Shown: positions 1 to 28,253, counted from the stretch's first letter. The stretch: DNA of 64,000 nt from Marinosulfonomonas sp. (GCA_033851955.1 JAWSVK010000018.1:1-64000); one strand, 5' to 3'. Notes: generated by a model not told the origin, from the letters alone. A program made the numbers and translations.

Positions 1-58
1 GAAATCTTGCGACCACCTCTGTAGGCTTGAAAGTCTTCTAGCTTAGGCATGGGTGGGT

Positions 59-2620
59 CTATAGTCTTGGATCAACTGGTTCACTCTCAAGAGCCAGTAC
101 GGCCAACGCGCATTCATGCACCTTTGATAGTGGCAAGCCCTCAACGAACCGATGCAACCCCTCAAAGCCCAGTTTGAACTCACGTTCCGCCAATGAAAAC
201 TTCCTTCCTAAGCCGCGTTGCCGCAGCCGTTCGATATTCTCAGGTAGATCATAGTCAGGACCATAGATGATGCGGAGGTAGTCGCGTCCACGCACCTTCA
301 TCGCAGGTTGGATCATGCCCTTGCTTCCGTGAACCAAGAAATCGGTTGGCTTGAAGACCAGCCCTTCGCCACCTTTGGATGTGTGATCGAGCCACCACTC
401 AACAACCACTTCCCGTTGTGCGGGATCATCGAGATTGATCTGCTTCCAACCGGTTGCCTGAAGGATCGGATCATTGTCAGCCAGTTTCGAGATCGTCTCC
501 ATGTGCCAAGTGTGGGGCTTGCCTGAGTGAACATGGCCTTCACTCGCCAGAATGTGGAATGGTGCAATACGATAGTCATCGATACTATCAGCTTGCCAGC
601 AATACCCATCAATCGTTTTACCCATCAAACGTGCGTTCAACAGCCTGATCTCGGCTTTGGCTTTCAACTCGGACAGATCATCTATTTCGCCTTTACGACT
701 CAATGCATCAATCAACGCGGCGGCGGAATGTTCAGCAGCAGCCACCGTGGGAAAGTACTGACGTTTTAGCAGGTCTTGGGCTTTGGCGGACCAAGGCATT
801 AATTCTGCGTCTAGCAGCACCCAGTCAGTTCCCAATTCATCCCAAAGGCCTGAAGACTGCATAGCTGTCGCCACACGATCAACCACAGCAGCCTCTGATG
901 TTTCATCCTTGAAGAACGGTCGCCCTGTTCTAGTGAAGATGACACCTGCTTTGCCATCTTCGACACCAAAGCGAACCTGAGCGGCCACAGCACTTTTGGC
1001 GACAACCAATAACGCCCGTGATCCCATGTGTTTCTCTTCGACAACAAGATCGGTCACACCACGACCAGCATAGTGATCCATGGCCTGCTCTGGCCGTTCC
1101 AGGAACGGTCCCTCAGATGCCGTTGGACACGCCGCCATGGTCGGTGGCAGGTATATCAACCAACGCGGATCGACCGCGAAGCGACTCATTACCTCAAGAG
1201 CAGCCAGGCTGTTCTCTTCAGGGATTTGGATCGTTGATTTGAACCGAGTCTCGATCCGCATTTTCGTCGCATAGTCATCGAAATACAAAAGCTTGTCGTG
1301 GTCTTGCTGTGCGGTCAGAGACTGACCCGCATCGAGAGGCTTGGCAGGGATTGCGTATTGCTGTTTCGCAGGGACCGACACCGTTTCCCGTTCAGGCCAA
1401 CGTAGCGCAGTCAGCTTGCCGCCAAAGACGCAGCCAGTATCAATACACATCGTTTGGTTCAGCCATTCAACATTAGCCATAGGCGTGTGGCCAAAGACAA
1501 CATCGGCCTTACCACGGTAATCTCTTGCCCATTCAAGGCGCACAGGAAGACCGAACTCATCCACTTCACCTGTCGTCTCTCCGAACATGGCGAAGTTGCG
1601 AACATAGCCAGACCCGCGACCGTGCATCTCTTCCTTCAGCCCAGCATGTGCGATGACCAGTTTTCCATCGGCAAGCCAGGCGTGGGACCGCAAGTCCCAG
1701 ATGAAGTCACTGGCCTGCTTGCGGAATGCATCAGAAGTCTGTTCAAGCTCGGTCACCGTCAGATCAAGACCATGTGTTTGGGTGACGGACCTACCCTTCA
1801 GCCATTTGTTCAGCTTGAAGTCATGGTTGCCGACAACGCATCGACCTGATCCTTCATCACACATCCCCATAACCAGCCGCAGTGCATTGAGGTTTTTGGG
1901 GCCACGGTCCGTGATGTCACCGACGAAGAACGCGATACGTCCCTCAGGGTGCCTTGCACAAATAAGGTCTTCCGACCCATCTTCATACGGATCGATCTGA
2001 TATCCCAAATTGCCCAGCAGTTTGGTCAATTCATCAAAGCACCCGTGGATGTCACCAATGATATCGAACGGGCCGTGATCTTGGCGGTTGTCGGTCCATA
2101 ACGGCTGACGTTCGATCTGAAGTGCGTCCACCTCTTCTGGAGACTTCATGATGTGAACGTTACGAAAGCCTTCCTTCTGCAAGCCACGCAGCCCCCTACG
2201 TAGGGCTTTAGCGTGGTTTCGAATGACATGCTCACCAAAGTCACGGTTTGAACGCTGTTGGTTGCGTTCATGACAAATCTTTGGGTCGATATCCAACACC
2301 AGTGCAACTGGCAAAGCGTGATACTTTCGAGCAAGTTGGATCAGCTTGGCCCGATCTTCGCGTTTCACCGATGTTGCATCGATGACAGTCAGCAACCGCC
2401 GTTTCAGACGGATGGAGGCGGTGTAGCTCAACAAGTCAAACGCATCGCCCGTGGCGGCCAGATCGGTTTCATTGTCGGACACCAAAGCACGGCAATGGTC
2501 CGAGGAAACGATCTCGGTTTCAAGGAAATGTTTACTGGCAAAGCTCGACTTACCTGAGCCAGTTGAGCCGATCAGAACAACAAGGGCGAAGTCGGGAATG
2601 GTTATCTGTAGATCGGTCAT
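59..2620 (-). CDS. pnkp: Polynucleotide kinase-phosphatase Pnkp (5'-kinase / 2',3'-phosphatase / adenylyltransferase-ligase; RNA repair)
   Basis: N-terminal P-loop kinase motif (GSTGSGKSS). Central calcineurin-like metallophosphatase motifs (GDIHGC, GDITDRG, GNHD). C-terminal ligase-like nucleotidyltransferase domain. Likely start at the internal Met (MTDLQ), whose ATG overlaps the upstream gene's TGA (ATGA). Confidence 0.85.
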   Translation of the reverse strand: MTDLQITIPDFALVVLIGSTGSGKSSFASKHFLETEIVSSDHCRALVSDNETDLAATGDAFDLLSYTASIRLKRRLLTVIDATSVKREDRAKLIQLARKYHALPVALVLDIDPKICHERNQQRSNRDFGEHVIRNHAKALRRGLRGLQKEGFRNVHIMKSPEEVDALQIERQPLWTDNRQDHGPFDIIGDIHGCFDELTKLLGNLGYQIDPYEDGSEDLICARHPEGRIAFFVGDITDRGPKNLNALRLVMGMCDEGSGRCVVGNHDFKLNKWLKGRSVTQTHGLDLTVTELEQTSDAFRKQASDFIWDLRSHAWLADGKLVIAHAGLKEEMHGRGSGYVRNFAMFGETTGEVDEFGLPVRLEWARDYRGKADVVFGHTPMANVEWLNQTMCIDTGCVFGGKLTALRWPERETVSVPAKQQYAIPAKPLDAGQSLTAQQDHDKLLYFDDYATKMRIETRFKSTIQIPEENSLAALEVMSRFAVDPRWLIYLPPTMAACPTASEGPFLERPEQAMDHYAGRGVTDLVVEEKHMGSRALLVVAKSAVAAQVRFGVEDGKAGVIFTRTGRPFFKDETSEAAVVDRVATAMQSSGLWDELGTDWVLLDAELMPWSAKAQDLLKRQYFPTVAAAEHSAAALIDALSRKGEIDDLSELKAKAEIRLLNARLMGKTIDGYCWQADSIDDYRIAPFHILASEGHVHSGKPHTWHMETISKLADNDPILQATGWKQINLDDPAQREVVVEWWLDHTSKGGEGLVFKPTDFLVHGSKGMIQPAMKVRGRDYLRIIYGPDYDLPENIERLRQRGLGRKFSLAEREFKLGFEGLHRFVEGLPLSKVHECALAVLALESEPVDPRL

Positions 2621-3201
2621 GACTTCCATTTTCTCAATTCTGATGCCGCCGCTGTCAGCAGGGATTTTGGGCCAAGTTCTTCCGCCGAGTAGTCGTATGC
2701 AATCGCCTCAAAGACAGAGTCATGAAAGGCAATCGCGAAATGGCGATACCCGTCGAACAAGCTGTCAGAGTGGCGCTGATGAATACGATTTGCGTGACAG
2801 AAATCGCGGATAGCATGAGACTCGATAACTTCTTTGGCGGTGTAAGGGTACAACCCCAACCGACTGAGTGGGTGAGCACCAATCGCTTCTTCGTTCGGTG
2901 GCCCGAGTCGATGCCAAAGAACATGATTGAAACGTATGACAGCCGTAGGTTCTCCCTCACTGCTGACTTCCACCATCCTGACAGACGTACCATCCCAATC
3001 AGGGTCATGTGTTCGCAAGTAGTAAAAGAGGCTCACGCTGTGTTCGTCGGCCAACACAAATGGCATTGGAGCACCACCTGCCATCGATGGTACGCCAGTC
3101 ATGTCTATGAGTGCTTCTATTGACGAATGTTCTTCGTCAGCACCCGAGTTGGGGGCATGATCTAACCGTTGCTGGCCAAATAGAGTTTTCCAAAGAGACA
3201 A
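2617..3201 (-). CDS. Hypothetical protein embedded in the Pnkp/Hen1 cassette (194 aa; probably a TTG start with an AAGGGGG RBS 8 nt upstream)
   Basis: ORF abuts the NTase stop codon and overlaps the pnkp start (ATGA). No recognisable motif. Operon context only. Confidence 0.5.
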   Translation of the reverse strand: MSLWKTLFGQQRLDHAPNSGADEEHSSIEALIDMTGVPSMAGGAPMPFVLADEHSVSLFYYLRTHDPDWDGTSVRMVEVSSEGEPTAVIRFNHVLWHRLGPPNEEAIGAHPLSRLGLYPYTAKEVIESHAIRDFCHANRIHQRHSDSLFDGYRHFAIAFHDSVFEAIAYDYSAEELGPKSLLTAAASELRKWKS

Positions 3202-4008
3202 TTATAATGCCCCCTTAACTATCTGCCGCAACAAGTTGTCGCCTTCAGCCATCAAGTCAGGTCGTTCTTCCTTCTTTGCCACAACAGTTGCCCATGCCAT
3301 CTGATCTTGGATGAAGGTGTCGATCATCGCGATACGCTCACCACGACCAATCTCCTTGGCTTTGCTTTTCAGTACCAACAACTCATCGATATGGATGATG
3401 AGATCGGGTGGTAAGTTTTGGCCTGCGACCAGATCGTGCAAGTTCATTGGCGGCGGTGTACCAGGTATCTGCCTGATCCATGAGATCGCCAAAGCGGGTC
3501 TCAGGATATAGAAATACTTCTTGAAGCTGACCTCTTGGCTATCACCAACGTGCTTATCCCACTGCTTTTGGGCAAGGTTCCGATAGTGGTGCAGGCACGA
3601 TTCACCATAGGTCGTCTTGGCCGCAAACTCGGTGAGTTGAGCGCACAGGTCATCGTTCCACCTGTAGCGAATAGGGCTGGACAGCCATTCCAACATGACG
3701 GGATTAGGCTTGATCAGCAGACCAAGGGCTTTGCGAATATCCCAGCCGTTGATATCCCAGTCTCCTTCAATAGGCAGTTCGATGACATCGCGACCTGGCT
3801 CAATGCTCATGTACCAATCTGGTTGATGCGCATAGATGAAACGCACATCGTAATCGCTGTCAGGCGACGGAAAGCCCCATGCACGGCTACCGCTTTCAAT
3901 GGCAAACAGTACCCTTACACCGTGTTCTACCTCCAAGGCAGTCAGCTTGGATTGGATCACATATTCGATCTCTGGTGAGATGCTGGGTACGAAGGATGGC
4001 AGTTTCAT
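3202..4008 (-). CDS. Pol-beta superfamily nucleotidyltransferase (RNA-repair-associated NTase)
   Basis: hG[GS] and DxD signature in ESGSRAWGF...DSDYDVRF near the N-terminus. The start ATG overlaps the hen1 stop (ATGA). Confidence 0.7.
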   Translation of the reverse strand: MKLPSFVPSISPEIEYVIQSKLTALEVEHGVRVLFAIESGSRAWGFPSPDSDYDVRFIYAHQPDWYMSIEPGRDVIELPIEGDWDINGWDIRKALGLLIKPNPVMLEWLSSPIRYRWNDDLCAQLTEFAAKTTYGESCLHHYRNLAQKQWDKHVGDSQEVSFKKYFYILRPALAISWIRQIPGTPPPMNLHDLVAGQNLPPDLIIHIDELLVLKSKAKEIGRGERIAMIDTFIQDQMAWATVVAKKEERPDLMAEGDNLLRQIVKGAL

Positions 4009-5414
4009 GATGCATCTCCCAAAGTGAAGATGGCCATTTGGGATGGTCCGCCATGGATTTCATCAACAGGACCAAGAGCGGCAAATTCCGCAGTATACCC
4101 GTGTTCATCAGCGACGTGTGTTGCCCACTCTTCAAACTCGGCCCGCGTCCACTCAAAGCGATGGTCAGGGTGACGCAGTTGGTTTTCCTTCATCGTCTCA
4201 AACAAAACGTTGTATTCACGGTTCGGCGTCGTAATCACGACCATATTCGGACGGGCGTCGGCAAAGAGTGACATTACCAAGGCTGACAGCCTGTGTGGCT
4301 CGATGTGTTCGATGACCTCGACAAGCGTTGCCGCATCGAAGCCCTTCCACCGACGATCACCATAGGTGAGGCTGCCCATTTGCAACGTCACACGTTCAGA
4401 CATGGCATCAACCGCCTGATGAAGACGCAATTTACGGTGAGCGGTTTCCAAGGTGCGCACAGATGGATCAACGCCGACGATCCGATCAATACCGCGTTCT
4501 TTGGTCAGCCGAGAGATCAGCTTCCCTTCGCCGCAGCCAAGGTCGAGAACAGATTTCACATTCTTCTGCCGCAGGGCATCAGCAACGGCATCCAAACGGA
4601 TGTCATGTAGCCGTAGGGGCTTTTCCAGTTGTTCTTCCGGCTTCAGTTTCGGGATCTCTTCGTCGTCATCTACGACTGCGGAATCCTCCAGCCGAGCCAA
4701 AGCCATGTTCGTCAACGACCGCCGATGCTTCAATGCACGACGGGTGATCAACTCCTTAGCTGGGTGGTTCGCCAGCCAGCCCTCACCCTTGGCAAGCAGT
4801 TTGTCTATTTCTTCTTGTGCAACGAAGTAGTGCTTGAAGTTGTCCATCACAGGAATCAGCACGTATAAATGGTTCAGAATATCGCCCAACCGCAACTTCG
4901 CGGACAGGCGCAGATCAATCACTGCAAGATCATCAACGTCGTCAGTTGAATGGATCACGTACCCCAGTGGTTCGAACAGCGACTTCAGCAGTTCTAGATC
5001 GCCTGACAATGCAACGGGAAGGACGCGGATTTCAAAGTCTAAAAGTTGATCAGCCAATTCCTGACGATCCTTGGACTTGCCTGCCATCGTCTGAGAAAAT
5101 GACCGAACAAGCGCCACCGACAGGAAAGAGTTTGCCACAAAGGGGCGATCATTCACGTACTGAGCCAGAAGCCCGTCGGACTGCTGGTTCTTGCCGCGAA
5201 CCAACCCAATTGGATCGACTTCGAGATGCAATACCGCAGTCGTGCATTCGTCTGAAACCTCAGGGTAGAATATCGTCACATCACCCGCAGATGTCTTCTT
5301 GGTATGAACATGATCTGGATGTTTATGCAGTAGAAAGCCGAGATCACGGGCGGAATAGTCCACGCCATTTTTTGCCAACAATGTAATCTCGATTTGCATA
5401 ATACTCGGCCTCAA
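4005..5414 (-). CDS. hen1: Hen1 RNA 3'-terminal ribose 2'-O-methyltransferase (bacterial Hen1)
   Basis: C-terminal Rossmann SAM-binding motif VLDLGCGEGKL. N-terminal domain typical of bacterial Hen1. First gene of the cassette. Confidence 0.85.
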   Translation of the reverse strand: MRPSIMQIEITLLAKNGVDYSARDLGFLLHKHPDHVHTKKTSAGDVTIFYPEVSDECTTAVLHLEVDPIGLVRGKNQQSDGLLAQYVNDRPFVANSFLSVALVRSFSQTMAGKSKDRQELADQLLDFEIRVLPVALSGDLELLKSLFEPLGYVIHSTDDVDDLAVIDLRLSAKLRLGDILNHLYVLIPVMDNFKHYFVAQEEIDKLLAKGEGWLANHPAKELITRRALKHRRSLTNMALARLEDSAVVDDDEEIPKLKPEEQLEKPLRLHDIRLDAVADALRQKNVKSVLDLGCGEGKLISRLTKERGIDRIVGVDPSVRTLETAHRKLRLHQAVDAMSERVTLQMGSLTYGDRRWKGFDAATLVEVIEHIEPHRLSALVMSLFADARPNMVVITTPNREYNVLFETMKENQLRHPDHRFEWTRAEFEEWATHVADEHGYTAEFAALGPVDEIHGGPSQMAIFTLGDAS

Positions 5415-5592
5415 GGAATCTCGTTGGTTGCAGGACTATCAACGATAGGTGGTGCCAACAACATGGTATTGAAATGGTGTTTATATGAATGGTCTGTATT
5501 CACGCGACCTGTGTGATAGAAAATCATGATCTGGCGGTCAAACTTGAATATGAATTAGGACAAGCAGCATCAATCAAAGATTGATGGCAAAA

Positions 5593-5619
5593 GTTCGAAT
5601 TCCGATTGAGTATTCGAAC
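5593..5619. promoter_or_regulatory. Inverted repeat GTTCGAAT-N11-ATTCGAAC in the leader of the hen1 cassette
   Basis: Perfect 8-bp inverted arms read directly from the sequence, about 180 nt upstream of the hen1 start codon in a 540-bp AT-rich intergenic region. Confidence 0.3.
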
Positions 5620-5954
5620 CCAATGTGATGACGTTTGCTACAATAATATGCTACGATACCCCATATAATCATATCATAAACATCTGTTAATAATAGGGAA
5701 ATACGAGCTTTCGCAACTTCCCTTCGGCTCCGCCACTACACTGTTTCGCCAAGGTGTCTGATTTGCTCTAGGCAGAATGCTGGGAAACCGAGCTATATGT
5801 GGATTGATTGCCTCAATCATATGAACTAAATTCAAAATTGGATGCGCACAAAAAACCCCCGCTTGGCAAGACGGGCAAAAGGTCTGCATGCAGCTATGTG
5901 CCTATGCTCCATGTCAGAATGGCTGCAACTAGGTGGAATTGAGGGAGACATTTG

Positions 5955-7559
5955 ATGCTAGACGTCGGTGAATTTGACTACGTAATTGTCGGGGCCGGGT
6001 CTGCAGGATGTGTGCTTGCCAATCGCCTGAGCGAAGACCCCAAAAACCAAGTTTTGCTCCTAGAAGCTGGCGGCAACGACAATTACCACTGGATCCATAT
6101 TCCAGTCGGATATCTATATTGCATCGGCAACCCACGGACCGACTGGAGGTTTTCAACGGCTCCCATCGAAGGTTTGAACGGGCGAACGCTTTTGTACCCT
6201 CGAGGCCGTGTCCTTGGCGGATGTTCCTCCATAAACGGCATGCTTTACTTGCGGGGGCAGGCCGCGGATTATGACGGCTGGCAGCAGATGGGAAACACCG
6301 GTTGGGGTTGGGATGATGTGCTGCCATATTTTATGAAATCCGAGGACTATTTTAGTGGCAAAGATGATCACCACGGACAGGATGGTGAGTGGCGCGTTGA
6401 AGAGCAGCGCCTGAACTGGGAAATCCTCGAGGCATGGAAAGTGGCGGCCACCGAGGCTGGCATTCCCGAGACACACGACTTCAATCGTGGGGACAATTTC
6501 GGCGTCGGCTATTTCAAGGTGAACCAACGTTCAGGCTGGCGGTGGAGCACTTCAAAGGCGTTTCTGCGCCCTGCCAAAACACGGGCCAACCTGACTGTCA
6601 TGACCCATGCACAGGCCGAAAAAATATTGATATCCGACAAGCGCGCAACCGGCGTACAGTTCTTGCACAAGGGCAGCAAATCAAAGGTCAGTGCGCGGCG
6701 TGAAGTGATCTTAGCCTCCGGCGCAATTGGCTCACCTCAATTGCTGCAATTATCTGGCATCGGCCCCGGGGGCTTGCTGCAAAAACATGGCATCGACATT
6801 GTGCATGAGGCACCTGATGTTGGCGGCAATCTGCAGGACCACTTGCAAATCCGCTGTGCCTATAAAATTCAGGGCGCAAAAACGCTGAATACGATGGCCT
6901 CGACCCTGTGGGGCAAGGCCAAAATCGGGCTTGAATATGCCCTGAAACGTACCGGCCCGATGTCCATGGCCCCCAGTCAACTTGGGGCTTTTGCCTATTC
7001 GGATGACCGCATGGAAACCCCCGATTTGGAATACCACGTGCAACCCGTGACGCTCGAGGCATTTGGGCAAGATCCGCACAGCTTCCCAGCGATCACCGCC
7101 AGTGTCTGCCACTTGCGCCCCGAAAGCCGTGGCCATGTTCATATCACCTCACCTGACGCACAGGCACATCCTGAAATTCAGCCGAACTACCTGTCGACCG
7201 ACGGTGACCGCGCTGTGGCCGCCAGCGCAATCCGGCAAACCCGTAAGATCATGGATCAACCCGCCTTGGCGCCGTATATGCCCGAAGAATTCAAACCGGG
7301 GCCGCAACATCAATCAGAGGAAGAGCTGATAGACGGCGCTCGCCAAATCGCCTCAACGATTTTTCATCCGGTTGGTACGGCCCGCATGGGCACGGATGCG
7401 CAGGCTGTCGTTGATCCCCAATTGCGGGTCAATGGCATCAACAATCTGCGTGTCGTGGACGCATCAATCATGCCGAATATCACCTCGGGCAACACGAATT
7501 CCCCGACCATCATGATCGCTGAGCGCGCCAGCGACTTAATCCTGAAATCAGCGACTTAG
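5955..7559 (+). CDS. GMC family oxidoreductase (choline-dehydrogenase-like flavoprotein)
   Basis: N-terminal FAD-binding fold [24 protein letters not shown] signature regions. ATG at 5955 with a GAGGGAG RBS. The track's 5952 start is a TTG one codon earlier. Confidence 0.85.
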
Positions 7560-7604
7560 GTGACAGGCGGCTCCCCCTGTTATGAGCCCCAGCATAAACA
7601 ACAA

Positions 7605-7632
7605 AGGCCCCGCAGCGCCATGCCGCGGGGCC
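7605..7632. terminator. Bidirectional rho-independent terminator hairpin (AGGCCCCGC...GCGGGGCCT) with U-runs on both sides
   Basis: GC-rich stem flanked by AACAACAAA upstream and TTTGTCATT downstream. Lies between the convergent GMC gene and the 514-aa gene. Confidence 0.5.
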
Positions 7633-7686
7633 TTTGTCATTCAATCACGGTTGCCAAATCGCAGCGGCATCAAGCATAGATCGCGC

Positions 7687-9231
7687 CTAAACGGCACGCA
7701 AAGGTACAACATTACCGTTTGGCGAGGACCCAAACTCAGGGAGCGTCCCATCATGGATGGTGCTGAGCGCAAGCGCCCGTAACGCATCACGCTTCATCTC
7801 CATGATCCGGTAATAGGTTTCTTGCGAGCGGATCGGATATATCGCGTAATGCGTGGCGTCCCCACTGGCCACGCGCATCTGCTCAGCCCAAGGTTCAAAC
7901 TCGCGACGGCGTGCGACAAGTGGCTCGAATTGGAAGGCCGGATCGACCGAAAGATCAAACAACGCTGTAAGGTATTCAGCTTGGCGCGTCCGCTCGTGAT
8001 TGCCACCCAATGGAACAAAGACAAAGGCCTGACATACGTTGTCACCACCCTGCCCCTCGTCCTCATGCCCGGGCAACACCGGAAAATCCCAAACGAAATT
8101 GCGCAGAACCCAGGCCGTGCGATGGATCTGTTGCTGCTCTTTGCCCGTCATCATCACGGCGCGCCCGACCCCATGGCCAAAAGCACCGCCCAGACTGACC
8201 AAATCAATTAACAATGTGAAAAGCGCAAAAGGCAGGATGGTTGCGCGGCTGATGCCGACATCACGTCCCTTGTCCTCGTCGATCAGGATCGGAACGACCA
8301 TTGCGAACGCATCAAAAATCTTGACCTCGCGCCGCAACGGAGGCTGCATCGGCAAATCGACAACATCATGCGCGGCGGTCGCAATTTCGGCGAACAACGC
8401 TGCCAGTTCGGGGTCGGAGCAACCTCGCTGTTGGTTTTCAAAAAAGAAACCCGCGCCGCCATAACCGCGGGCCAAGGCATCCGCCTCTTGGGCGATAAGC
8501 AACCGATCGGGATTGGTCCGCAGCGCCCGCGCATCTGAAAACAACGTATTAACGACGCTCTGATCCTTGGCGGAAATCAACGCTCGCGCTGTCTTTTCTG
8601 CCGCCGTGCTCAGCACAGCTGCCCGACGCGCGATGCTGTTGGCAGCTTTCGCGCCCTCAGCCCGCATACGGGTCAACGGCCCAATTCCGCGTGCAGATAC
8701 CCCACAAGTGCCCCCCACTGCGGCTTCCCGAGTTGAGCGCTTTGCCGCAAGACGGTCAGCACGTGCCGCCGTCAACGCGACACCCGCCATGCCATCGGCT
8801 AACCCGTTGACCGGCTCTATTGTGGCGGAAAAAGCCGCATGGTTCATCAAGGCCTGAACCCCGTCGCGGTTGTTAAGATACAGCAGTGCAGTCGTTGCCG
8901 TTAGCACCGAAAGCGACGACATGACCAAGCCTCCAGCAATATAATGCCAGACACGCGGCGCAGGCAAAGCGGCCTGCGCACGCCGTAAATGTTTTTCACG
9001 GCTGCTGCGTCCTGCTTGCAACCAAAAACGGAATGCAAGAAGGGTCAAAAACAGTGTCGACACCGCAGACACAGCGATGCGGGATGACTCATTTAGGGAT
9101 GATCCCGTCAGCGAAAAGTAAATTCCACTGCCGCTCAAAACGGTCGAAAGGACCAAAGCGATCCCCCCGACCAGACCGGCGATTGAGACGCCGTTCGACA
9201 ACAATTTTGATATGGTTTGGGAGCGTTTCAT
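7687..9231 (-). CDS. Hypothetical membrane protein (514 aa; N-terminal TM helices, Ala-rich central region)
   Basis: Long ORF with hydrophobic N-terminal segments. No recognisable catalytic motif. Its start overlaps the upstream small gene's stop (ATGA), so the two form an operon. Confidence 0.5.
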   Translation of the reverse strand: MKRSQTISKLLSNGVSIAGLVGGIALVLSTVLSGSGIYFSLTGSSLNESSRIAVSAVSTLFLTLLAFRFWLQAGRSSREKHLRRAQAALPAPRVWHYIAGGLVMSSLSVLTATTALLYLNNRDGVQALMNHAAFSATIEPVNGLADGMAGVALTAARADRLAAKRSTREAAVGGTCGVSARGIGPLTRMRAEGAKAANSIARRAAVLSTAAEKTARALISAKDQSVVNTLFSDARALRTNPDRLLIAQEADALARGYGGAGFFFENQQRGCSDPELAALFAEIATAAHDVVDLPMQPPLRREVKIFDAFAMVVPILIDEDKGRDVGISRATILPFALFTLLIDLVSLGGAFGHGVGRAVMMTGKEQQQIHRTAWVLRNFVWDFPVLPGHEDEGQGGDNVCQAFVFVPLGGNHERTRQAEYLTALFDLSVDPAFQFEPLVARRREFEPWAEQMRVASGDATHYAIYPIRSQETYYRIMEMKRDALRALALSTIHDGTLPEFGSSPNGNVVPLRAV

Positions 9232-9740
9232 AGGGCTTCCTCCTGTTTGGTATTGGCATTAGGGGCCGCGACTGCGCCGCGCCCCCAGTTTTTCTTACAT
9301 TTCGCCCGTGTGAACTGGGGTTCGAAATCGAAACCGGCGGCGATGGCCATATCGATGCCTGTACACAGCCCCCAATGCGGCGCGCTGTCTTGCTTGATTG
9401 TTTCGCTTTCAACCAGCGCTGCCCCAACATTTGCACCGGTATAGATCATAACAAATGCCACCAATGGGATCACGATTAGCAGCGCCCATTTTCCCAAATT
9501 TCCTTTCTTTCCCTCTGGAAACAGGCCGGGTGGCAGATCTTCCGGTGCCTTGCTGGTCCATTTTGGCAACCAGTTACGTCGCACCGTTTCTTGGGGTTTT
9601 TTACGGGTCAGCACATATTGTTCTGACCACACTGCATTGCCGGGATTTTTCGTTTGGTGGGGAGCCGAAGAAATTTTCGTCGGACGTTGCGCCCGATGCG
9701 TATTTGGTCCACTCCCTGTTGGTTGTTTTTTCTTGGTCAT
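9228..9740 (-). CDS. Hypothetical small membrane protein (170 aa, basic N-terminus, one TM helix)
   Basis: ORF with a single hydrophobic segment (WALLIVIPLVAFVMIYTG). Translationally coupled to the downstream 514-aa gene. Confidence 0.45.
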   Translation of the reverse strand: MTKKKQPTGSGPNTHRAQRPTKISSAPHQTKNPGNAVWSEQYVLTRKKPQETVRRNWLPKWTSKAPEDLPPGLFPEGKKGNLGKWALLIVIPLVAFVMIYTGANVGAALVESETIKQDSAPHWGLCTGIDMAIAAGFDFEPQFTRAKCKKNWGRGAVAAPNANTKQEEAL

Positions 9741-9919
9741 CTGCGCCTCTCTTTCCTCACCTTCGGAACCACGTGAATTGGCCCATGGATGATAGAAACT
9801 TAGAACAAATGAGAGAGAGATGCCGTAGACGAACGAAAATTAGTCAAATCTTATCATCTTTAAGGTATTGAAAAGTATCATTAAATTTACTAAAATCATC
9901 TAGATTTTCTGCCGGACGG

Positions 9920-9949
9920 TCTATAGATTGACCTGTAAATATCTATAGG
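9920..9949. promoter_or_regulatory. Inverted repeat TCTATAGAT-N12-ATCTATAGG in the AT-rich divergent promoter region
   Basis: 8/9-bp inverted arms read directly from the sequence. Sits between the minus-strand membrane operon and the plus-strand 521-aa gene. Confidence 0.3.
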
Positions 9950-10130
9950 CTGCGGAAAAACGTCCAAAGATGTCGCTGAACTTCGGATGTTTTTCAGCAA
10001 CAAACCCCAAAATCATCCAAAGACCCAAGATTTCATCTTTGACGAGAAGCTTTCTGGCGATAATTTGCTACGAAGTTTTAGGTAGTAAATCAAGGCACAT
10101 AATCAATGTGCGCAGGGGCGGGGAAATAGG

Positions 10131-11696
10131 TTGGCACGTAGGGTTGGGGCAGAAAAATCCGCAAATAAATCAAACTCCTCACCCTCGGCCAACGACTTGG
10201 CTGATTGGGCGCTCGAAGGCCTGTTGACCAAGTTTGGTCATGAAGCAGATTGGGCGCGTCTGAAAACCCACACGGTAGATGAGCCACCCGCAGCACTCTG
10301 TCACACATGTGCCGAGCTTGTTAAAGCCTGCAAAAGTATAGGCATAGCGATCCGATCCGAAGATCGCCCGAACAACCAGTTCGCGCTTTACAATCTTTAT
10401 TTTTCGCGGGTTCTTCTAAAGGAAATGAAGGCCTTATCGGGCATAGCACGGGATGAGCCGGTGAACGCCGATGGCCCCAGCGCCTTGAATGAAAAGAATG
10501 ACAGCTCACTCAACCGCATAACGTCCGCGATGGCGATTATGTGGTCCACAATGTCAAACCACGCCGCCCACTCCCAACTTGACGCACAAGAAAGCGACGA
10601 GAACATAGCCTCGACCCTGACCAAATATTTCACACGCGAAAATTTCCGCATGACCAAACGCGAAAACTACGGCGCAGCCTTGTTTTTCTTGATAGGGCTC
10701 GCCGCCCGCGCGGAGTATAGTTTTGAAGGCGAAAAGGTATTGGGCGCCTCCCCTGCGATTTTTAGCTTCGTGCTAGAAGCACAAGCCACCCTGTCTGCCG
10801 ATAACGCAACACCTGTACTGATCGATAAGCGCGTGGTCGAGACGCTGGAGCGCGGCCGGATGGCCCAGCTTGCACATACCTTTTTGGGCGGTTTACTCGA
10901 GGTTGGCATAACCGACGTCAAGCGCCTCTGGAAACCGCTCTTTGGGGAAAAATCTAGCGCCCATGCGAGGCTCTCAAACCGCGTGTCTGCCGAACGCCAC
11001 TATGTCTGCTACCGCCTCACATCCTCTGAGCGCGACGTCGAGGTGCTCAAATCTTTCCTCGTCGTACAAGCCCCGGGCTTTGTAGAAGACACCCAAAATC
11101 GGCGCGATCATTTTGCAATGAAAGTGTTTACCAATTATGATTCCGCGCCAATGCGCAGCGTCGGGGCAGTGGTCGAACTTGGTGAGGAAATCGTTGGCTT
11201 TGCCAGTCGACGCAAAGATATTGACGAAGACACATCGATTTTACTGAACCCTGATCAATTCCATGGTGCCACCATGCTGAATTTCAAACAGGTATGGTTT
11301 ACGAAAGGCAACGGCATATTGATGGGCATGTTGATGACCAGCAATCAAAAAAGCCGCAGCATGGCGTGCCCAGTTTTGTGCATTCGCACCGATGCTATAC
11401 ATTCCTCACAAGTCAATTTGGGCGTGATCAATCCTGACCAACTTATTGCGGATATGCTCACCCACACCCGTCTTGCTGTCGCCGCCCCGAGCAGTGACAC
11501 CGCTGATCACAAAAAGCTTGCCAGTTATGTTTGGGACGCGCTGCTGTCCCGCCCCGCTGAAAACGTGGTCTATACCCCGCAAAACGACGACGAAACAGAC
11601 CGCTCGGGCGGCCCACCCATAGTGGCACCGGATATCTCGCCACGCAGCCTGGCAAACAAGTTTCAACGGCTCGGTTTTTCTATGAATGACAACTAA
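10131..11696 (+). CDS. Hypothetical protein (about 521 aa; start uncertain because the track start is TTG)
   Basis: Long ORF with no recognisable motifs, no Walker A and no TM segments. Lower GC than the flanking regions. Confidence 0.45.
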   Translation: MARRVGAEKSANKSNSSPSANDLADWALEGLLTKFGHEADWARLKTHTVDEPPAALCHTCAELVKACKSIGIAIRSEDRPNNQFALYNLYFSRVLLKEMKALSGIARDEPVNADGPSALNEKNDSSLNRITSAMAIMWSTMSNHAAHSQLDAQESDENIASTLTKYFTRENFRMTKRENYGAALFFLIGLAARAEYSFEGEKVLGASPAIFSFVLEAQATLSADNATPVLIDKRVVETLERGRMAQLAHTFLGGLLEVGITDVKRLWKPLFGEKSSAHARLSNRVSAERHYVCYRLTSSERDVEVLKSFLVVQAPGFVEDTQNRRDHFAMKVFTNYDSAPMRSVGAVVELGEEIVGFASRRKDIDEDTSILLNPDQFHGATMLNFKQVWFTKGNGILMGMLMTSNQKSRSMACPVLCIRTDAIHSSQVNLGVINPDQLIADMLTHTRLAVAAPSSDTADHKKLASYVWDALLSRPAENVVYTPQNDDETDRSGGPPIVAPDISPRSLANKFQRLGFSMNDN

Positions 11697-13217: not shown

Positions 13218-16200
13218 ATGCCCCCGATGATCAGCCGTGTCACCAACAAAACCCTGAGTTTCTTTGCATCTGCTGTACTTGCCTGCCTTATCGCACCGAC
13301 AAATGCACACGCGCAGAACCTTTTGGTAGATGGTGGGTTTGATGGTGCGCCGCAAACCCAACACGGTGACCGCTTTGACGAAGATCTTTCGCCTTGGATG
13401 TTTGCCACCGTCTCTCCGACAGCAGTCATTCAGAACACGCAAAACCTTGTGGCAGTCGATGGGCCCGGCGGGTTTGACTATCAGGATCGGGGGCCAGAAT
13501 CTGACGCCTCCAGTGCGCCTGCAGGTGTCACCCAGTACTACATCGATAGCGGCAACATTCCGCTTTATGGATGGCAATACTTCACGCCCAGTTGCCGCGG
13601 GACTGCGACTGCGAGCATGAAAGTGACCAATCGCGAAGGTCACGGCGAAGCGGGGCCAACGCTCACGGGTGCAGAAGTTCCCCCACAAGCTGGTCCATTC
13701 ACATTTCGCAGCACTCAAGGTGGCTTGGCCATTTTACAAGTGCCCAACCAAATTCCGACCTTCCCCATCGGATTTGGCGTTTCCCCTGCGCCGACCGCGC
13801 AACTTGTCACAGCACTCAAAGCCCAATTTGACGCCGAAAAAATGCCGTTTCTTTTGACAGCAGCCACCACGCAAACCTACCCTTGGACGCCGATGACCTT
13901 TCAGGCGCCTGTTGAGGCCGGTCAGCTCTACGCCTTTATGGCCGAGCTTGGACACAGCGTGAACATGGACAACGCCTCGGTTGAGGTCGCCTGCGACACC
14001 CCAGTGGTGCCAGTACCCACAGACATCACCGTGACCAAAACCTGCGACGCCCCTGTGGCTGGCGTCCACAATGGCGTGTCAGGCATGTTCTGGGACTGCG
14101 AGATTGACGCTCAAGGCACCCTGCACACACAGCCCAGCCAAGGCGTTTTACATGTCAACGATCTGGTGACCCCGTCAACTGGAACCACGGCCGAAATTAT
14201 CTCAATGACTTCGCAATCGGGCAACATGAATTGCACCTATAACAACGGTCAATCCTGCCTTGTTGCGGGCAATACTTTTGACGCCACCAATGGCGAAACG
14301 ATCGATGTGCAGCTGTTCCTGTCCGGCGCCGCTGCCCCCGCGCAGCACAATGTCGAAAACTGCGTTAAGGCCATTTATTTCAAAAACGGTCAACCAACCC
14401 AGTTCCCGCAAAGCTGCGTGACAACCCAGTGGGAAATACCCACCCCCTCGCCCTATTTGAACACGGTTAAAACCTGCGATCCAATCGCCCCCGTCAGCAC
14501 GGGTCCGATGACCCTGAATTGCCAAATCCAAGTGACAGGCACAAACCTTGCGCCCGGCAGCTTTGTTCTGGTGGGCGATGCTTTTGCGGGTTTGCCACCA
14601 ATGAACGCCTCAATTATTGGCACGATGATGAACGTCACCTCAAACGAGCCATGGTCCTGTGTTGATCTGAACATCAACACCCCCAGTTCGGTTGGTCTTT
14701 GTGAACTGCCAGCGGCCGATATGGCCGCGGCTGGTGGCAGCTCGGTGATCAACGTCAGTTTTGAATTCACGACCGACCAAAGCGGCGGCCAAGTGGCCAA
14801 CTGCCCGATTTCAGAGGCAACCCCAAACTCGTTCATATCCGCCACCGGTCAGCGCAGCAGTCAGCCACCTATGCGCAGCCCGCAAACCGATTCAGTGCAA
14901 TTGCCCGACGGTTGCGTTCTGTTGGATATACCGCCCGCAATCGTGGAAGAAAAAATCGAGCGCGCCGAAATGACCAAAAGCTGTGATCAACCGCAGCAGG
15001 CTGTCGTCAACGGCGTGCTTGGCTACACATGGGACTGTCAGGCCACAATCACCGTGATCCCGATACCTTTTGCAGGCACATTCACACTGGATGATGACGC
15101 TTCCAACATCTCGATTGGCGTGGCGCAATTCCTGTCCGCCTCAGAACCAAACTGCCAAGGCATTGGCACCGATCAGTTGAGTTGCGCCCTGAATGGCGCG
15201 ACCATGACTGCGCCTCACATCGTGACCTATCAACTGTTCACCGAACTCACCGACCCCAATCAGCCGATTGAGTGGGAAAACTGCATCAAAGGCCGTGCTG
15301 AAACCACCGCAGACGAGCACCCCACCGTGCCAATGTGTGTTGGGCGTGTGATCAAACCGGAAATCAGTGTCGTTGATCCAGAGCCAAAAGAGATCACTTT
15401 GACCAAGAAATGTGGCCGTCCAAGTGATGCGCAACAGAATGGTGTGAATGGCAAACGCTGGTCTTGTGAAGTCACCGTCACCGCCAATCCCGCCCCCTTC
15501 TCAGGGACGTTTAGTTTCCTTGAAGACGCCAGCAATGTGTCCGGCACGACCAGCGCCAATATCATCGGCTATCAGTCCACCAACGCAGGCTGGACCTGCG
15601 GCGGCACCTTCCCCCAGCCGCAAACCCAGTGCGGCATTTTAGGCAATGTGTTTTCCCAATCCGGTGTCGAAACGATCAGCTTTGATCTGTTTGCCGCCAA
15701 TCAGGGCAACTCTGTGAAATGGGAAAACTGCGTGTCCGGCACCTACACGAATGCTTTCGGTGAAAAGCGCGACGTCAAAGGCAATTGTGTTGGTACCGAT
15801 TGGGAAAACACCAAAGAGCCACCTGTCATTCCGCTGAAAAAAGGCTGTCGTGCCACGGGGACTGAAAACGGTAATTCCTATTACCTGTGCTCCATCTACG
15901 TAAGCCCGCCCAGCAGTGGCACCGTCACCGGCCCGCTGACGGTGGACGAATTGTTCACCACGGCCTCAGGCGCCTCTGCGACGCAATATATCCAAGCCCT
16001 GATCGGCACACCCTCCGCGCCAAATGGCTGGGCCTGTCAGCAACCAAACTTCCCCAACGGGGCAAGCTGCACAATTTCCGCGGCTGATTTTAACGGCAAT
16101 ACAGGTCACCGGATTGATGCCCAGATCATGATCCCGACCGCTGTGTTGCAGAAAGAAGGGTTTGAAAACTGTGCCCAAGTGCGCATAGGTGATCAGATTG

Positions 16201-18965
16201 TCGGATCGGCCGACTGTGTCGACATCATTGTTGAAACCGAAAAGGTCGAATTTGACGTCGAAAAATCCTGCAAACCATCGGGGGATCGCCAAATTTTGGG
16301 TGCGACCGGATGGGTTCAGGCCTATCAATGTACCCTGACCGTGACCACCAACGGAGTGCCGTTCACGGACCCGCTTTGGATCACTGAAGATCTGCATTTC
16401 GGAACCAACTCTGGCGCGGGCCAAATCCAAAACATCACCTCTGCTGACCCTTGGTCCTGCTCAAACCCGCCATATTCCGCGCCCGGTCAAGGCAACGTGC
16501 CCTATTGCGGCATCCAAGGTGCTCAATTTCCAGCCTCTGGCACCTCGACACTCACGGTCGACCTGATGATGAATGCGGCGATGGATCAGTTTGGCGCGGA
16601 AAATTGCGTATCGCTTAGCGTCGGGCCACCAACCGCAAATGGCCTTCCTGCCCCGATTGCAAGCGATTGCTTTGAATTTGCACCAGCGCCTGAGCCGACA
16701 CTGGATATCACCAAAACATGCGAGCCCGCAATCCTCGGGGCTGGCAACCTTTGGACGGTCGAATGCACCGTGACCGTCAGCGGCACGAACCTGCCATCCG
16801 GGCATCAAATCATCCTAAAAGATGGGCTGCAAGGCGCGGGCTCTACCGTCATCAATTCGGGCGGTTTCAATCCGTCGCCGTTCTTACCGCAAAGCTGTAC
16901 GGGCTATGCAATTGCCTCTGGTCTTGGATCACAGTGCATACTGACAAGCGATCAAATCACTGCAAACGGCGGGTCAATATCACTGCCCTACACGGGAACG
17001 CTTTCTGGTAACCGCTTGGGTCTAAACAGCCCCCCTGCCGAGAACTGCGCTGCCGCCAGTGTTTCGGCGCTGAACCTGACTGCGCCACAAAACGCGACCG
17101 GCCAGGCCTGCGTTGATATCCCACTGACTGTTACAGCCGTTCCAGGAACAGGTGGCATCAGCATCGATCCTTCGATTCCTATCATCGTCACGCCACCAAC
17201 AGGCTGTGGGTTTGATACGCTGTTTGTGATCGACCAATCCGGATCGATGCAACAACAAAACCGGATGGGATTGACCAAACAAGCCGTCACTGCGGCGCTG
17301 CGTATTTTCGTAGGTGGTGGCTCAAAGTCAGGTGCAATTGTGTTCAATGAATTTGCCTATCCCGCCGGTGGAACATCCGTTCTGCTGCCGTCTTCCACTT
17401 TGGAAACGGCGATCAGCGCGATCACAGCTGGTGGCCCCACCAATTGGGTGGCCGGTATGACCACGGCAAACAACGTCGTGTCTGGTCTGGCGAATAAACC
17501 CTTGGTCCTGTTCATCACGGACGGGTTGCCAAATCGACCCGTCGGCGATCCAACACAGGTTGGGAACACGACTTACTACATCAATCAGGCCGCCCCTGCG
17601 GTGAACGCTTTGCGTGCGCAAGGCAGCCAAGTCGTGGGGATCGCGCTTGGGAATGGTGTTCTATCAAGCAATCTATCCATGCTGCTTGGGCCAAATGTCG
17701 TCACCGCCGGTGGAAATGTTGCGATTGATCCGCAAACAACAGATGTTATTGCCATTCCCACAGGAAATATGATCATTCCCGCGTTTGAAGCGATCGTAAA
17801 CGCATATTGCCCTGGTAGAAAAACCATGACGCAACCACAAAAAGATGCGCTGATGGCAACGTTGCAAGCGATGCCAAAATCCGCAGGCGTCTATATGGGG
17901 GATGATGAATTGCTTGTTGTGCCAGAAGAGGAAGCCGTGGACAAGCCGCCCGTCCTCCCAACAACAGCGCCTGCTCTAACCACCATCAAAGAGCAAACGG
18001 GACCGTGCGTCGCCAACCGCGCCAGCCAGACCTACGACTGTGGTTTCCGTCTAAGTGTCACCAACACCGGAACGGGGCCATACATTGGGCCACTGGTGAT
18101 GACCGACACGGCGGGCAATCCCGGGATCAACTCGGCGAGTGCCGTCTCGGGCAACGGCTGGAGCTGCGGCGCAGCTGTCGGCAATGCGGTGTCCTGTACA
18201 AACCCTGCAGTCAACCTGACACCGGGAGCCTCAACCCATGTTGACCTGCGGATGAAGGTCAAAGGTCTGCGCAAGGGTGGCAGCCTCCAAAACTGTGCCA
18301 CAACAGGCGTCACGGATGATCGCCGTCAGCGGGTGGCTTTGATCCAAAAAATCATGAACGACCGTGGCCTGAAAGCCGGACCAGTTGATGGCGATCCCGG
18401 GCGCAAAACCTTTGCCGCGCTTGCCACATTGCGCGCCGATCTTGGTTTGGCAGAAAGCCGCGAATTTGATGATGCGTTGTTCAACGCCCTTGGACTTCCG
18501 TTGCAAAACGCAGAACAAGCCTCTTGTGTCACGGCTGACCTTGCGCCGATGCCGGCCCCACCGTTGCAGTGCAATCCGAAAACCACTGTGGCACAGGGCG
18601 AAAGCTGTGCGTGCCGCTATGATAACATGAAGCGGCGCAATGCGCGTTCTTGTCAGTGTCGTGCGGGATATGCGCTGGTTGTCGGCAAAGGCTGTGTAGA
18701 AAAAGCAGCCCCCAAACCACAACCCGTTCCAAAGACAGGGCCCAAATGTGATCTGCGATCAACCTACCTACGCGGCGATGTCTGTGCCTGCATTGATCGC
18801 AAAAACGCACGCAACATTTCCAAAACCCGCTGCGGCTGCACAAATGGGCTTCCGATGGTCAATGGCAGATGTATACCGATCAAGGTCCGACCAAAACCCG
18901 AAGGCGATGGACCTGCGGGCACCAAAGACTGTCGGATTAAAATTGGCAATGTTTGTGTAAAATAA
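13218..18965 (+). CDS. Giant secreted multidomain surface protein / adhesin (1915 aa): Sec signal peptide, tandem Ig-like repeats, vWA domain, peptidoglycan-binding domain, C-terminal Cys-rich modules
   Basis: Signal peptide (FFASAVLACLIAPTNAHAQ). Repeated roughly 150-aa modules, each beginning TKTCD/TKSCD/TKKCG. vWA MIDAS motif (LFVIDQSGSMQQ...FITDGLPN). PG_binding_1-like segment (KIMNDRGLKAGPVDGDPGRKTFAAL). Three C-terminal CxC...C repeats. Confidence 0.8.
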   Translation: MPPMISRVTNKTLSFFASAVLACLIAPTNAHAQNLLVDGGFDGAPQTQHGDRFDEDLSPWMFATVSPTAVIQNTQNLVAVDGPGGFDYQDRGPESDASSAPAGVTQYYIDSGNIPLYGWQYFTPSCRGTATASMKVTNREGHGEAGPTLTGAEVPPQAGPFTFRSTQGGLAILQVPNQIPTFPIGFGVSPAPTAQLVTALKAQFDAEKMPFLLTAATTQTYPWTPMTFQAPVEAGQLYAFMAELGHSVNMDNASVEVACDTPVVPVPTDITVTKTCDAPVAGVHNGVSGMFWDCEIDAQGTLHTQPSQGVLHVNDLVTPSTGTTAEIISMTSQSGNMNCTYNNGQSCLVAGNTFDATNGETIDVQLFLSGAAAPAQHNVENCVKAIYFKNGQPTQFPQSCVTTQWEIPTPSPYLNTVKTCDPIAPVSTGPMTLNCQIQVTGTNLAPGSFVLVGDAFAGLPPMNASIIGTMMNVTSNEPWSCVDLNINTPSSVGLCELPAADMAAAGGSSVINVSFEFTTDQSGGQVANCPISEATPNSFISATGQRSSQPPMRSPQTDSVQLPDGCVLLDIPPAIVEEKIERAEMTKSCDQPQQAVVNGVLGYTWDCQATITVIPIPFAGTFTLDDDASNISIGVAQFLSASEPNCQGIGTDQLSCALNGATMTAPHIVTYQLFTELTDPNQPIEWENCIKGRAETTADEHPTVPMCVGRVIKPEISVVDPEPKEITLTKKCGRPSDAQQNGVNGKRWSCEVTVTANPAPFSGTFSFLEDASNVSGTTSANIIGYQSTNAGWTCGGTFPQPQTQCGILGNVFSQSGVETISFDLFAANQGNSVKWENCVSGTYTNAFGEKRDVKGNCVGTDWENTKEPPVIPLKKGCRATGTENGNSYYLCSIYVSPPSSGTVTGPLTVDELFTTASGASATQYIQALIGTPSAPNGWACQQPNFPNGASCTISAADFNGNTGHRIDAQIMIPTAVLQKEGFENCAQVRIGDQIVGSADCVDIIVETEKVEFDVEKSCKPSGDRQILGATGWVQAYQCTLTVTTNGVPFTDPLWITEDLHFGTNSGAGQIQNITSADPWSCSNPPYSAPGQGNVPYCGIQGAQFPASGTSTLTVDLMMNAAMDQFGAENCVSLSVGPPTANGLPAPIASDCFEFAPAPEPTLDITKTCEPAILGAGNLWTVECTVTVSGTNLPSGHQIILKDGLQGAGSTVINSGGFNPSPFLPQSCTGYAIASGLGSQCILTSDQITANGGSISLPYTGTLSGNRLGLNSPPAENCAAASVSALNLTAPQNATGQACVDIPLTVTAVPGTGGISIDPSIPIIVTPPTGCGFDTLFVIDQSGSMQQQNRMGLTKQAVTAALRIFVGGGSKSGAIVFNEFAYPAGGTSVLLPSSTLETAISAITAGGPTNWVAGMTTANNVVSGLANKPLVLFITDGLPNRPVGDPTQVGNTTYYINQAAPAVNALRAQGSQVVGIALGNGVLSSNLSMLLGPNVVTAGGNVAIDPQTTDVIAIPTGNMIIPAFEAIVNAYCPGRKTMTQPQKDALMATLQAMPKSAGVYMGDDELLVVPEEEAVDKPPVLPTTAPALTTIKEQTGPCVANRASQTYDCGFRLSVTNTGTGPYIGPLVMTDTAGNPGINSASAVSGNGWSCGAAVGNAVSCTNPAVNLTPGASTHVDLRMKVKGLRKGGSLQNCATTGVTDDRRQRVALIQKIMNDRGLKAGPVDGDPGRKTFAALATLRADLGLAESREFDDALFNALGLPLQNAEQASCVTADLAPMPAPPLQCNPKTTVAQGESCACRYDNMKRRNARSCQCRAGYALVVGKGCVEKAAPKPQPVPKTGPKCDLRSTYLRGDVCACIDRKNARNISKTRCGCTNGLPMVNGRCIPIKVRPKPEGDGPAGTKDCRIKIGNVCVK
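14020..17100 (+). repeat. Tandem array of about 7-8 Ig-like (DUF11-like) coding repeats inside the adhesin gene, period about 430-500 bp
   Basis: The recurring TKTCD-type module starts near 14029, 14467, 14968, 15397, 16255 and 16705. Each module carries a conserved Cys/Trp pattern (W.C, NC). Confidence 0.5.
17208..17750 (+). other. von Willebrand factor type A domain within the adhesin
   Basis: DxSxS MIDAS motif (DQSGS) and the downstream FITDG motif. Confidence 0.6.
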
Positions 18966-28157: not shown

Positions 28158-28180
28158 TCAGTGTTTCCACCTTACCCAAG

Positions 28181-28253
28181 GTTTGATGGCGGGGTTCGAA
28201 CCCGCTACAGGCAAATTATAATTTTGCTGCTCTACCAGATGAGCTACATCAAC
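28181..28253 (-). tRNA. tRNA with anticodon UAU (Ile-AUA reading type), 73 nt, no encoded CCA, G1:A72 mismatch
   Basis: Manually folded cloverleaf: acceptor GTTGATG/CATCAAA; D-arm GCTC-ATCTGGTA-GAGC (U8, A14, G18G19, A21); anticodon arm GCAAA-AUUAUAA-TTTGC; 5-nt variable loop; T-arm GCGGG-TTCGAAC-CCCGC. Confidence 0.55.

Follow-up and report, generated by a model that had tools for sequence, protein, structure and literature searches.

An RlaP-family nucleotidyltransferase gene between hen1 and pnkp in an RNA repair operon of Marinosulfonomonas sp.

Described RlaP proteins and the hen1-rlaP-X-pnkp operon

RlaP proteins are RNA ligase-associating nucleotidyltransferases (NTases) of the DNA polymerase beta (Pol-beta) superfamily, named after gene neighborhoods with an RNA ligase or RNA repair genes and entered in Pfam as PF10127 under the full name "RlaP, RNA repair pathway DNA polymerase beta family". 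A later paper credits a 2016 study with the prediction that they replace lost nucleotides ahead of ligation (Burroughs & Aravind 2016, as cited in PMC7824862), and the prediction is spelled out in two later papers of the same group (PMC7824862, PMC6514570). Two members of the family, from P. fluorescens (PfRlaP) and P. aeruginosa (PaRlaP), have been characterized in a preprint of December 2025 (Carruthers, Fatma and Huang, bioRxiv 10.64898/2025.12.29.696909; hereafter Carruthers et al., 2025), and T4 NrdC.11 and phiKZ gp237 also belong to it. Here an RlaP-family gene (rlaP) is described from a stretch of 64,000 nucleotides of Marinosulfonomonas sp. (GCA_033851955.1 JAWSVK010000018.1:1-64000), referred to as the window, in which it shares an operon with hen1 and pnkp, the genes of the Pnkp/Hen1 RNA repair system.

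The two Pseudomonas proteins were found to label RNA only, neither DNA nor protein, and to add one to two nucleoside monophosphates (NMP), or deoxynucleoside monophosphates (dNMP), to an RNA 3'-OH and not to a 3'-phosphate, with little specificity for the nucleoside triphosphate (NTP) and with Mn2+ or Co2+ preferred (Carruthers et al., 2025). Their preferred substrate was the 5' half of an annealed nicked-tRNA mimic, and RlaP partly rescued the aminoacylation of a repaired tRNA-Asp which was missing one anticodon-loop nucleotide (Carruthers et al., 2025). The PfRlaP crystal shows an N-terminal NTase domain and a C-terminal helical domain, with a terminal helix folded back against the NTase domain (Carruthers et al., 2025). 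It has been pointed out by the same authors that a 3'-OH product suits 5'-phosphate ligases and is a problem for RtcB, and that RlaP is also found in operons of 5'-phosphate-ligase repair systems (Carruthers et al., 2025).

In the window the rlaP open reading frame (ORF) fills positions 3202..4008 of the minus strand exactly. Its product of 268 amino acids (aa) was found to match PF10127 with E = 4.3e-82 and 276 bits (gathering score 23) over profile positions 4–248 of 249, which is far above chance and confirms the Pol-beta nucleotidyltransferase reported at this place by a first-pass annotation made from the sequence alone. A further match is to the phage nucleotidyltransferase family PHROG 14344 (E = 3e-75). 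No second Pfam family was found at E <= 0.01 in the Pfam scan, no NCBIfam or PADLOC model matched, and a search against PDB chain sequences gave no match at E <= 1. Among the best 120 homologs, which share 55–91% identity with the product, PF10127 was present in 120 of 120, and those that carry a name are Rhodobacteraceae/Paracoccaceae (Roseobacter, Cognatiyoonia, Aliiroseovarius, Ruegeria, and Tabrizicola). Homologs of RlaP are also often carried by jumbo phages, with 86 phage records, chiefly of the phiKZ type.

The hG[GS] motif of the superfamily is represented by E38-S39-G40-S41 and the DxD motif by S51-D52-Y53-D54, with D85 as the third carboxylate. Conservation of the two motifs had been proposed as a check in the first-pass annotation, and G40, S41, S51, D52, D54, and D85 were all invariant in an alignment of 18 RlaP sequences that takes in the proteins of phages, namely phiKZ gp237 (39% identity), Caulobacter phage CcrPW (37%), and Fusobacterium phage Fnu1 (25%). 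Further invariant residues in this alignment are K93, K100, N102, E107, H141, Y142, K163, and R170. As judged by these comparisons the rlaP product is an orthodox RlaP-family nucleotidyltransferase, one more ortholog of an already named family of >10,000 sequences whose role, proposed in 2016, was demonstrated in part in 2025. It is like the characterized members in its full-length profile match, its G-S / D-x-D / D residues, its size, and its linkage to an RNA ligase gene. Coverage of the profile from end to end would indirectly favor a two-domain architecture like that of PfRlaP.

Four genes were found to abut or overlap on the minus strand in the following order:

hen1: 4005..5414, minus strand, RNA 3'-terminal ribose 2'-O-methyltransferase (TIGR04074 bacter_Hen1), first gene of the operon

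rlaP: 3202..4008, minus strand, RlaP-family Pol-beta-superfamily nucleotidyltransferase of 268 aa with an ATG start

gene X: 2617..3201, minus strand, conserved ORF of 194 aa between rlaP and pnkp

pnkp: 59..2629, minus strand, trifunctional polynucleotide 5'-kinase / 2',3'-phosphatase / RNA ligase (TIGR04075), last gene of the operon

At the hen1-rlaP junction (GGGAGATGCATC-ATGA) the start of rlaP overlaps the stop of hen1, with the Shine-Dalgarno sequence GGGAGA upstream, and at the rlaP-X junction (AAGGGGGCATTA-TAA-TTG) the TTG start of X stands directly after the stop of rlaP, again with a Shine-Dalgarno sequence upstream. At the X-pnkp junction (TC-ATGA-CC) a pnkp ATG is overlapped by the stop of X, and this second ATG, at 2620, may be the start of pnkp. 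As read from the sequence, these start/stop overlaps indicate translational coupling across the operon, and rlaP is therefore a cistron of its own, coupled in translation to its neighbors, contrary to the first-pass description of a nucleotidyltransferase "fused" into a tRNA repair context. The placing of the gene between hen1 and pnkp holds on one side, where rlaP lies directly downstream of hen1, and not on the other, where X intervenes before pnkp.

Both outer genes encode proteins which match equivalog models and possess all the catalytic modules. The hen1 product scored 591 bits against TIGR04074 (cut-off 340), contains the Pfam Hen1_L and methyltransferase domains, and has a legible S-adenosylmethionine (SAM) motif VLDLGCGEG. 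The true start of hen1 is probably the ATG at 5399, because tblastn alignments of relatives to Hen1 start at residue 6. The pnkp product scored 1245 bits against TIGR04075 bacter_Pnkp (cut-off 750) and contains the Pfam domains AAA_33, Metallophos, and PNKP_ligase (PF16542), with legible motifs for the kinase P-loop (GSTGSGKS), the phosphatase (GDIHGC/GDITDRG/GNHD), and the ligase (EEKHMGSR). Pnkp and Hen1 are thus encoded in one operon, as in the canonical Pnkp/Hen1 system (Anabaena and Clostridium thermocellum type); however, in the window hen1 stands at the head of the operon and is separated from pnkp by the additional cistrons rlaP and X.

A chance insertion between RNA repair genes of an antibiotic-modifying nucleotidyltransferase of the ANT/Lnu type would be in keeping with the shared superfamily, which is the sole point in its favor. 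However, the NTP_transf_2 and KNTase families were unmatched in the Pfam scan, the homolog set is uniformly PF10127 and not dominated by Ant/Lnu proteins, a dominance that the first-pass annotation had named as refuting its proposal, and the position between hen1 and pnkp is kept across many taxa, with overlapping starts and stops. The probability of this explanation is negligible, and from the sequence comparisons it may be regarded as effectively refuted.

Conservation of the Hen1-RlaP-Pnkp arrangement and the proposed role of RlaP

The four proteins of the window and several of the relatives' neighboring proteins were mapped by tblastn onto all fetched loci (numbered with the prefix L). The order Hen1-RlaP-(slot)-Pnkp, in which the slot is the interval before pnkp, was found in L001–L006, L011, L012, L016, L017, L028, and L030 with RlaP identities of 63–90%, and at least 12 independent loci, from Rhodobacteraceae and marine metagenomes, share the Hen1-RlaP-Pnkp arrangement. 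Two more copies, L025 and L027, are truncated by contig ends so that only one flank is visible. Most RlaP homologs of >=63% identity with both flanks visible lie between hen1 and pnkp, the Ruegeria copies (~82%) being an exception. In L001, L004, and L005 the Hen1-RlaP-Pnkp module stands directly after RtcR-Ro60-RtcB, and in L002, L012, and L016 a separate RNA_ligase and HD/kinase pair is found close by, of which there is none in the window. Two of the loci with RtcR-Ro60-RtcB (L001 6491..7174 and L005 6304..6987) encode, between Hen1 and RlaP, a protein of 227 aa that matches no Pfam family and is absent from the window.

By analogy with the Pseudomonas enzymes, it is considered likely that the rlaP product is a nucleotidyltransferase which refills lost RNA nucleotides and is co-translated with Hen1, X, and Pnkp. 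The rebuilding of RNA 3' ends together with Pnkp/Hen1, as envisaged in the first-pass annotation, is in agreement with the presence of PF10127 throughout the best 120 homologs, with the hen1-pnkp context, and with the biochemistry of the Pseudomonas RlaPs. The novelty that was attached to it, an extension of the known Pnkp/Hen1 chemistry, does not hold, as the idea dates from 2016 and has now been partly tested. That one to two nucleotides are added to an RNA 3'-OH, that Mn2+ is preferred, and that the 5' half of a nicked tRNA is the favored substrate is known from the literature on paralogous enzymes and would apply to the window protein by analogy.

The proposed pathway would begin with a ribotoxin that cuts a tRNA or rRNA loop and leaves a 2',3'-cyclic phosphate and a 5'-OH; toxins such as RloC and PaOrf2 would in addition take away the one to two nucleotides that they are reported to remove (Carruthers et al., 2025). 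The phosphatase of Pnkp would then turn the 3' end into a 2'-OH/3'-OH end while its kinase would phosphorylate the 5' end. The two-metal site of RlaP formed by D52, D54, and D85 (probably with Mn2+) would add one to two NMP, untemplated, to the 3'-OH of the 5' fragment, and where nucleotides had been lost the gap would be refilled in a fraction of the molecules. Finally, Hen1 would methylate the 2'-OH of the new 3'-terminal nucleotide, and the ligase of Pnkp would join the 3'-OH to the 5'-phosphate. The 3'-OH product of RlaP would fit this operon because Pnkp is a 5'-phosphate ligase. The Pnkp/Hen1/RlaP operon would therefore provide a chemically coherent setting for the RlaP hypothesis, with a 3'-OH that can be ligated by Pnkp and methylated by Hen1, whereas the RtcB-linked RlaPs that have been characterized make a product which their own ligase cannot use.

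Several points weigh against this role. The characterized Pseudomonas RlaPs are RtcB-linked, being encoded between rtcB and rtcA under RtcR control, unlike the window protein between hen1 and pnkp, and the published repair step was sealed with T4 RNA ligase 1 and not with Pnkp/Hen1 (Carruthers et al., 2025). Untemplated addition gives the correct nucleotide in a fraction of molecules only (Carruthers et al., 2025), and for this reason the physiological benefit of RlaP is still a proposal. That the ortholog described here has the same activity is presumed from its relatives, as is the place of the RlaP step ahead of Hen1 methylation. In addition, the Ruegeria loci L013–L015 carry a close RlaP without Hen1/Pnkp, so that RlaP can also act outside a hen1-pnkp operon.

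In the one of these Ruegeria loci whose neighborhood was examined (L013, Ruegeria sp. ANG10, 5687..10813) the lone RlaP (82% identity) stands beside a SMODS-domain nucleotidyltransferase resembling those of cyclic-oligonucleotide-based anti-phage signaling systems (CBASS), and further neighbors are a small membrane protein, an RloB-like gene, and a NinG-like gene. This neighborhood looks like a defense island.

Another lone RlaP without a neighboring ligase gene was found in L031, and together with the Ruegeria copies it would be compatible with a different function, in which RlaP repairs or edits the 3' acceptor end of tRNA as a back-up resembling a CCA-adding enzyme and does not act on internal breaks. 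In total E. coli RNA, RlaPs also label tRNAs and rRNAs of full length, and in vitro they extend any single-stranded RNA 3'-OH (Carruthers et al., 2025), which points in the same direction. However, the CCA-adding enzyme family was unmatched in the Pfam scan, the low NTP specificity of RlaP is ill-suited to CCA synthesis, and the close association with ligase and end-methylase genes at no fewer than 12 loci points to ends that are bound for ligation. Action at the acceptor end is accordingly rated as quite improbable. RlaP shares with CCA-adding enzymes, and also with the MenT/AbiEii nucleotidyltransferases, the Pol-beta superfamily fold and chemistry and the transfer of nucleotides to RNA 3' ends, but differs from both in having no family-level match to them, in its low NTP specificity, in adding one to two nucleotides at breaks, and in having no paired antitoxin.

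It has to be considered as well that RlaP might add a mark or tail, either as a flag for decay or for the choice of Pnkp/Hen1 substrates, and not restore sequence, an option which the first-pass annotation had also raised. Untemplated addition mostly inserts the wrong nucleotide, and a lower yield of correct tRNA after ordinary damage is conceded by the authors of the preprint (Carruthers et al., 2025). On the other hand, addition halts at one to two nucleotides, which is the number removed by RloC and PaOrf2, and treatment with GTP before ligation increased the aminoacylation of repaired tRNA (Carruthers et al., 2025). Tagging is thus thought improbable, and the refilling of lost nucleotides is preferred.

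Gene X and the variable slot before pnkp

The slot before pnkp, which holds X in the window, was compared among sibling operons with flanking proteins 75–93% identical to those of the window. The scans for RlaP relatives in metagenomes and genomes gave 5 and 11 loci, and the census of slot contents is small because single-protein patterns reach close relatives only. Besides X, three further forms of the slot were found:

Empty slot: L003, L004, L016, L017, L030

Barstar-family protein (RNase inhibitor family) of 162–168 aa: L005/6, L011, L025, L027–29, with coordinates L011 10822..11307, L005 7810..8316, L028 6825..7304, and L027 987..1466

Protein of ~163 aa, kin to neither X nor the Barstar type: L012 10806..11297

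Only the slot proteins of L011 and L005 were scanned with Pfam, giving 30.1 bits against Barstar PF01337 in L011 (above the cut-off of 23.4) and 21.7 bits in L005, while the others were assigned to the Barstar type by tblastn, at about 50% identity with the L005 protein.

X itself has no Pfam match and no sequence match in the PDB, and neither X nor the variable hen1-pnkp slot is described in the searchable literature. Its core comprises residues ~29–194, the N-terminal ~28 residues being variable and modeled with low confidence. X is a real gene, with 13 close homologs of 46–99% identity, and a profile search of 1.84 billion representatives gave 1716 relatives at E <= 1e-3, of which 1025 reached E <= 1e-10. 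Every named relative is a "hypothetical protein", and a Pfam scan of 61 members of the family gave no match except one weak Glyoxalase. Domain fusions in the family (one STAS, one alpha/beta-hydrolase) were not informative, and nothing was found for X in a viral fold library or in viral contigs.

Members of the X subfamily at >=53% identity were always found with Hen1/Pnkp, either as Hen1-RlaP-X-Pnkp (the window, L001, L002) or as Hen1-X-Pnkp without RlaP (L032–L035), and distant members are stand-alone genes in unrelated neighborhoods. A SAM methyltransferase, which is not Hen1-like, adjoins stand-alone X homologs in two of four cases. In four metagenomic contigs a gene with a Tle1-like phospholipase domain (PF09994) of the type VI secretion system (T6SS) lies directly upstream of Hen1-X-Pnkp (199..1269 in L032). 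The G+C content at third codon positions (GC3) of X is 0.49, the lowest of the operon, compared with 0.56–0.60 in the other three genes, and X diverges faster than its neighbors, being 74% identical to its counterpart in L002 where Hen1, RlaP, and Pnkp are 88–92% identical.

A small Pol-beta nucleotidyltransferase followed by a small acidic protein raises the question of a toxin-antitoxin pair lodged in the repair operon, with RlaP as a MenT/AbiEii-type toxin that blocks tRNA acceptor ends and X as its antitoxin, and the low GC3 of X would be consistent with a mobile cassette. However, the AbiEii, MenT, and MNT families were unmatched at E <= 0.01 (Pfam, PADLOC), which also removes the support for the MenT/AbiEii alternative of the first-pass annotation, and the characterized RlaPs prefer the break of a nicked tRNA over the acceptor end. 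Moreover, RlaP occurs without X in the five loci with an empty slot and X occurs without RlaP in L032–L035; since each is found without the other, the pair was rejected as a toxin-antitoxin system, and this explanation is considered highly improbable.

The residues H110, H144, H154, D161, and E165 are conserved in the X family. A first AlphaFold2 (AF2) model built from 14 sequences was set aside, with a predicted local distance difference test score (pLDDT) of 54, and a model from an alignment of 124 sequences reached a pLDDT of 86.9. The fold predicted for X is nearest to PIM7 (PDB 8owu), the immunity protein of the polymorphic DNase toxin PT7, with a sequence identity of 8% and about half of X covered. 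X differs from PIM7-type immunity proteins by this low identity and partial coverage, by its conserved His/Asp/Glu set, and in that most members of its family stand alone with no toxin nearby.

The low GC3 of X, its fast divergence, and the Barstar alternative in the same slot suggest that X may be an inhibitor or immunity protein. Against this, its conserved His/Asp/Glu set is more suggestive of a metal site than of an inhibitor surface, no toxin gene was found near X or its family members in the neighborhoods examined, and there is no kinship with Barstar, as the candidate of a divergent Barstar was rejected when the X family and the Barstar-like slot proteins were compared by hhalign, with a probability of 0.1%. 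It is tentatively suggested that the hen1-pnkp interval of Roseobacter-group operons might be a swappable slot coupling RNA repair with ribotoxin-specific neutralizing or processing accessories, with X as either a nuclease-toxin inhibitor (PIM7-like fold) or a metal-dependent RNA-end enzyme. If so, X would be the founding operon-linked member of an unannotated family of >1700 representatives. Should repair operons collect such toxin-specific cassettes, the hypothetical proteins of this large family would for the first time be anchored to a function.

Upstream region and other features of the window

No RtcR, RtcB, or Ro60 was found in the window and no sigma-54 promoter (GG-N10-GC) was found upstream of hen1, and on this basis control of the operon by RtcR and sigma-54 was ruled out. 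A sigma-70 consensus scan of positions 1..6000 gave nothing, and Rfam detected no RNA element upstream of hen1. The intergenic region upstream of hen1 has 536 bp and is AT-rich (GC about 0.46). It contains the motif CATGTTGTTGGCACCACCTATCGTTGATAG at 5436..5465 on the minus strand, which matches neither the sigma-54 consensus nor the sigma-70 consensus of the scan and is partly kept in the stand-alone operons L011, L012, and L016.

Elsewhere in the window, a megablast search for a plasmid origin gave no match, and two ORFs of >500 aa each (7687..9231, minus strand, and 10131..11696, plus strand) have no Pfam match. A very large ORF of 1915 aa (13218..18965, plus strand) has VWA_2 as its sole recognized domain, and after it are encoded a protein with several SH3b domains and a large channel of the MscS family. 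Bacteria usually decode AUA with a lysidine-modified CAU tRNA, and the UAU anticodon is uncommon among them; a tRNA-Ile gene with a TAT (UAU) anticodon is present at 28180..28253 on the minus strand.
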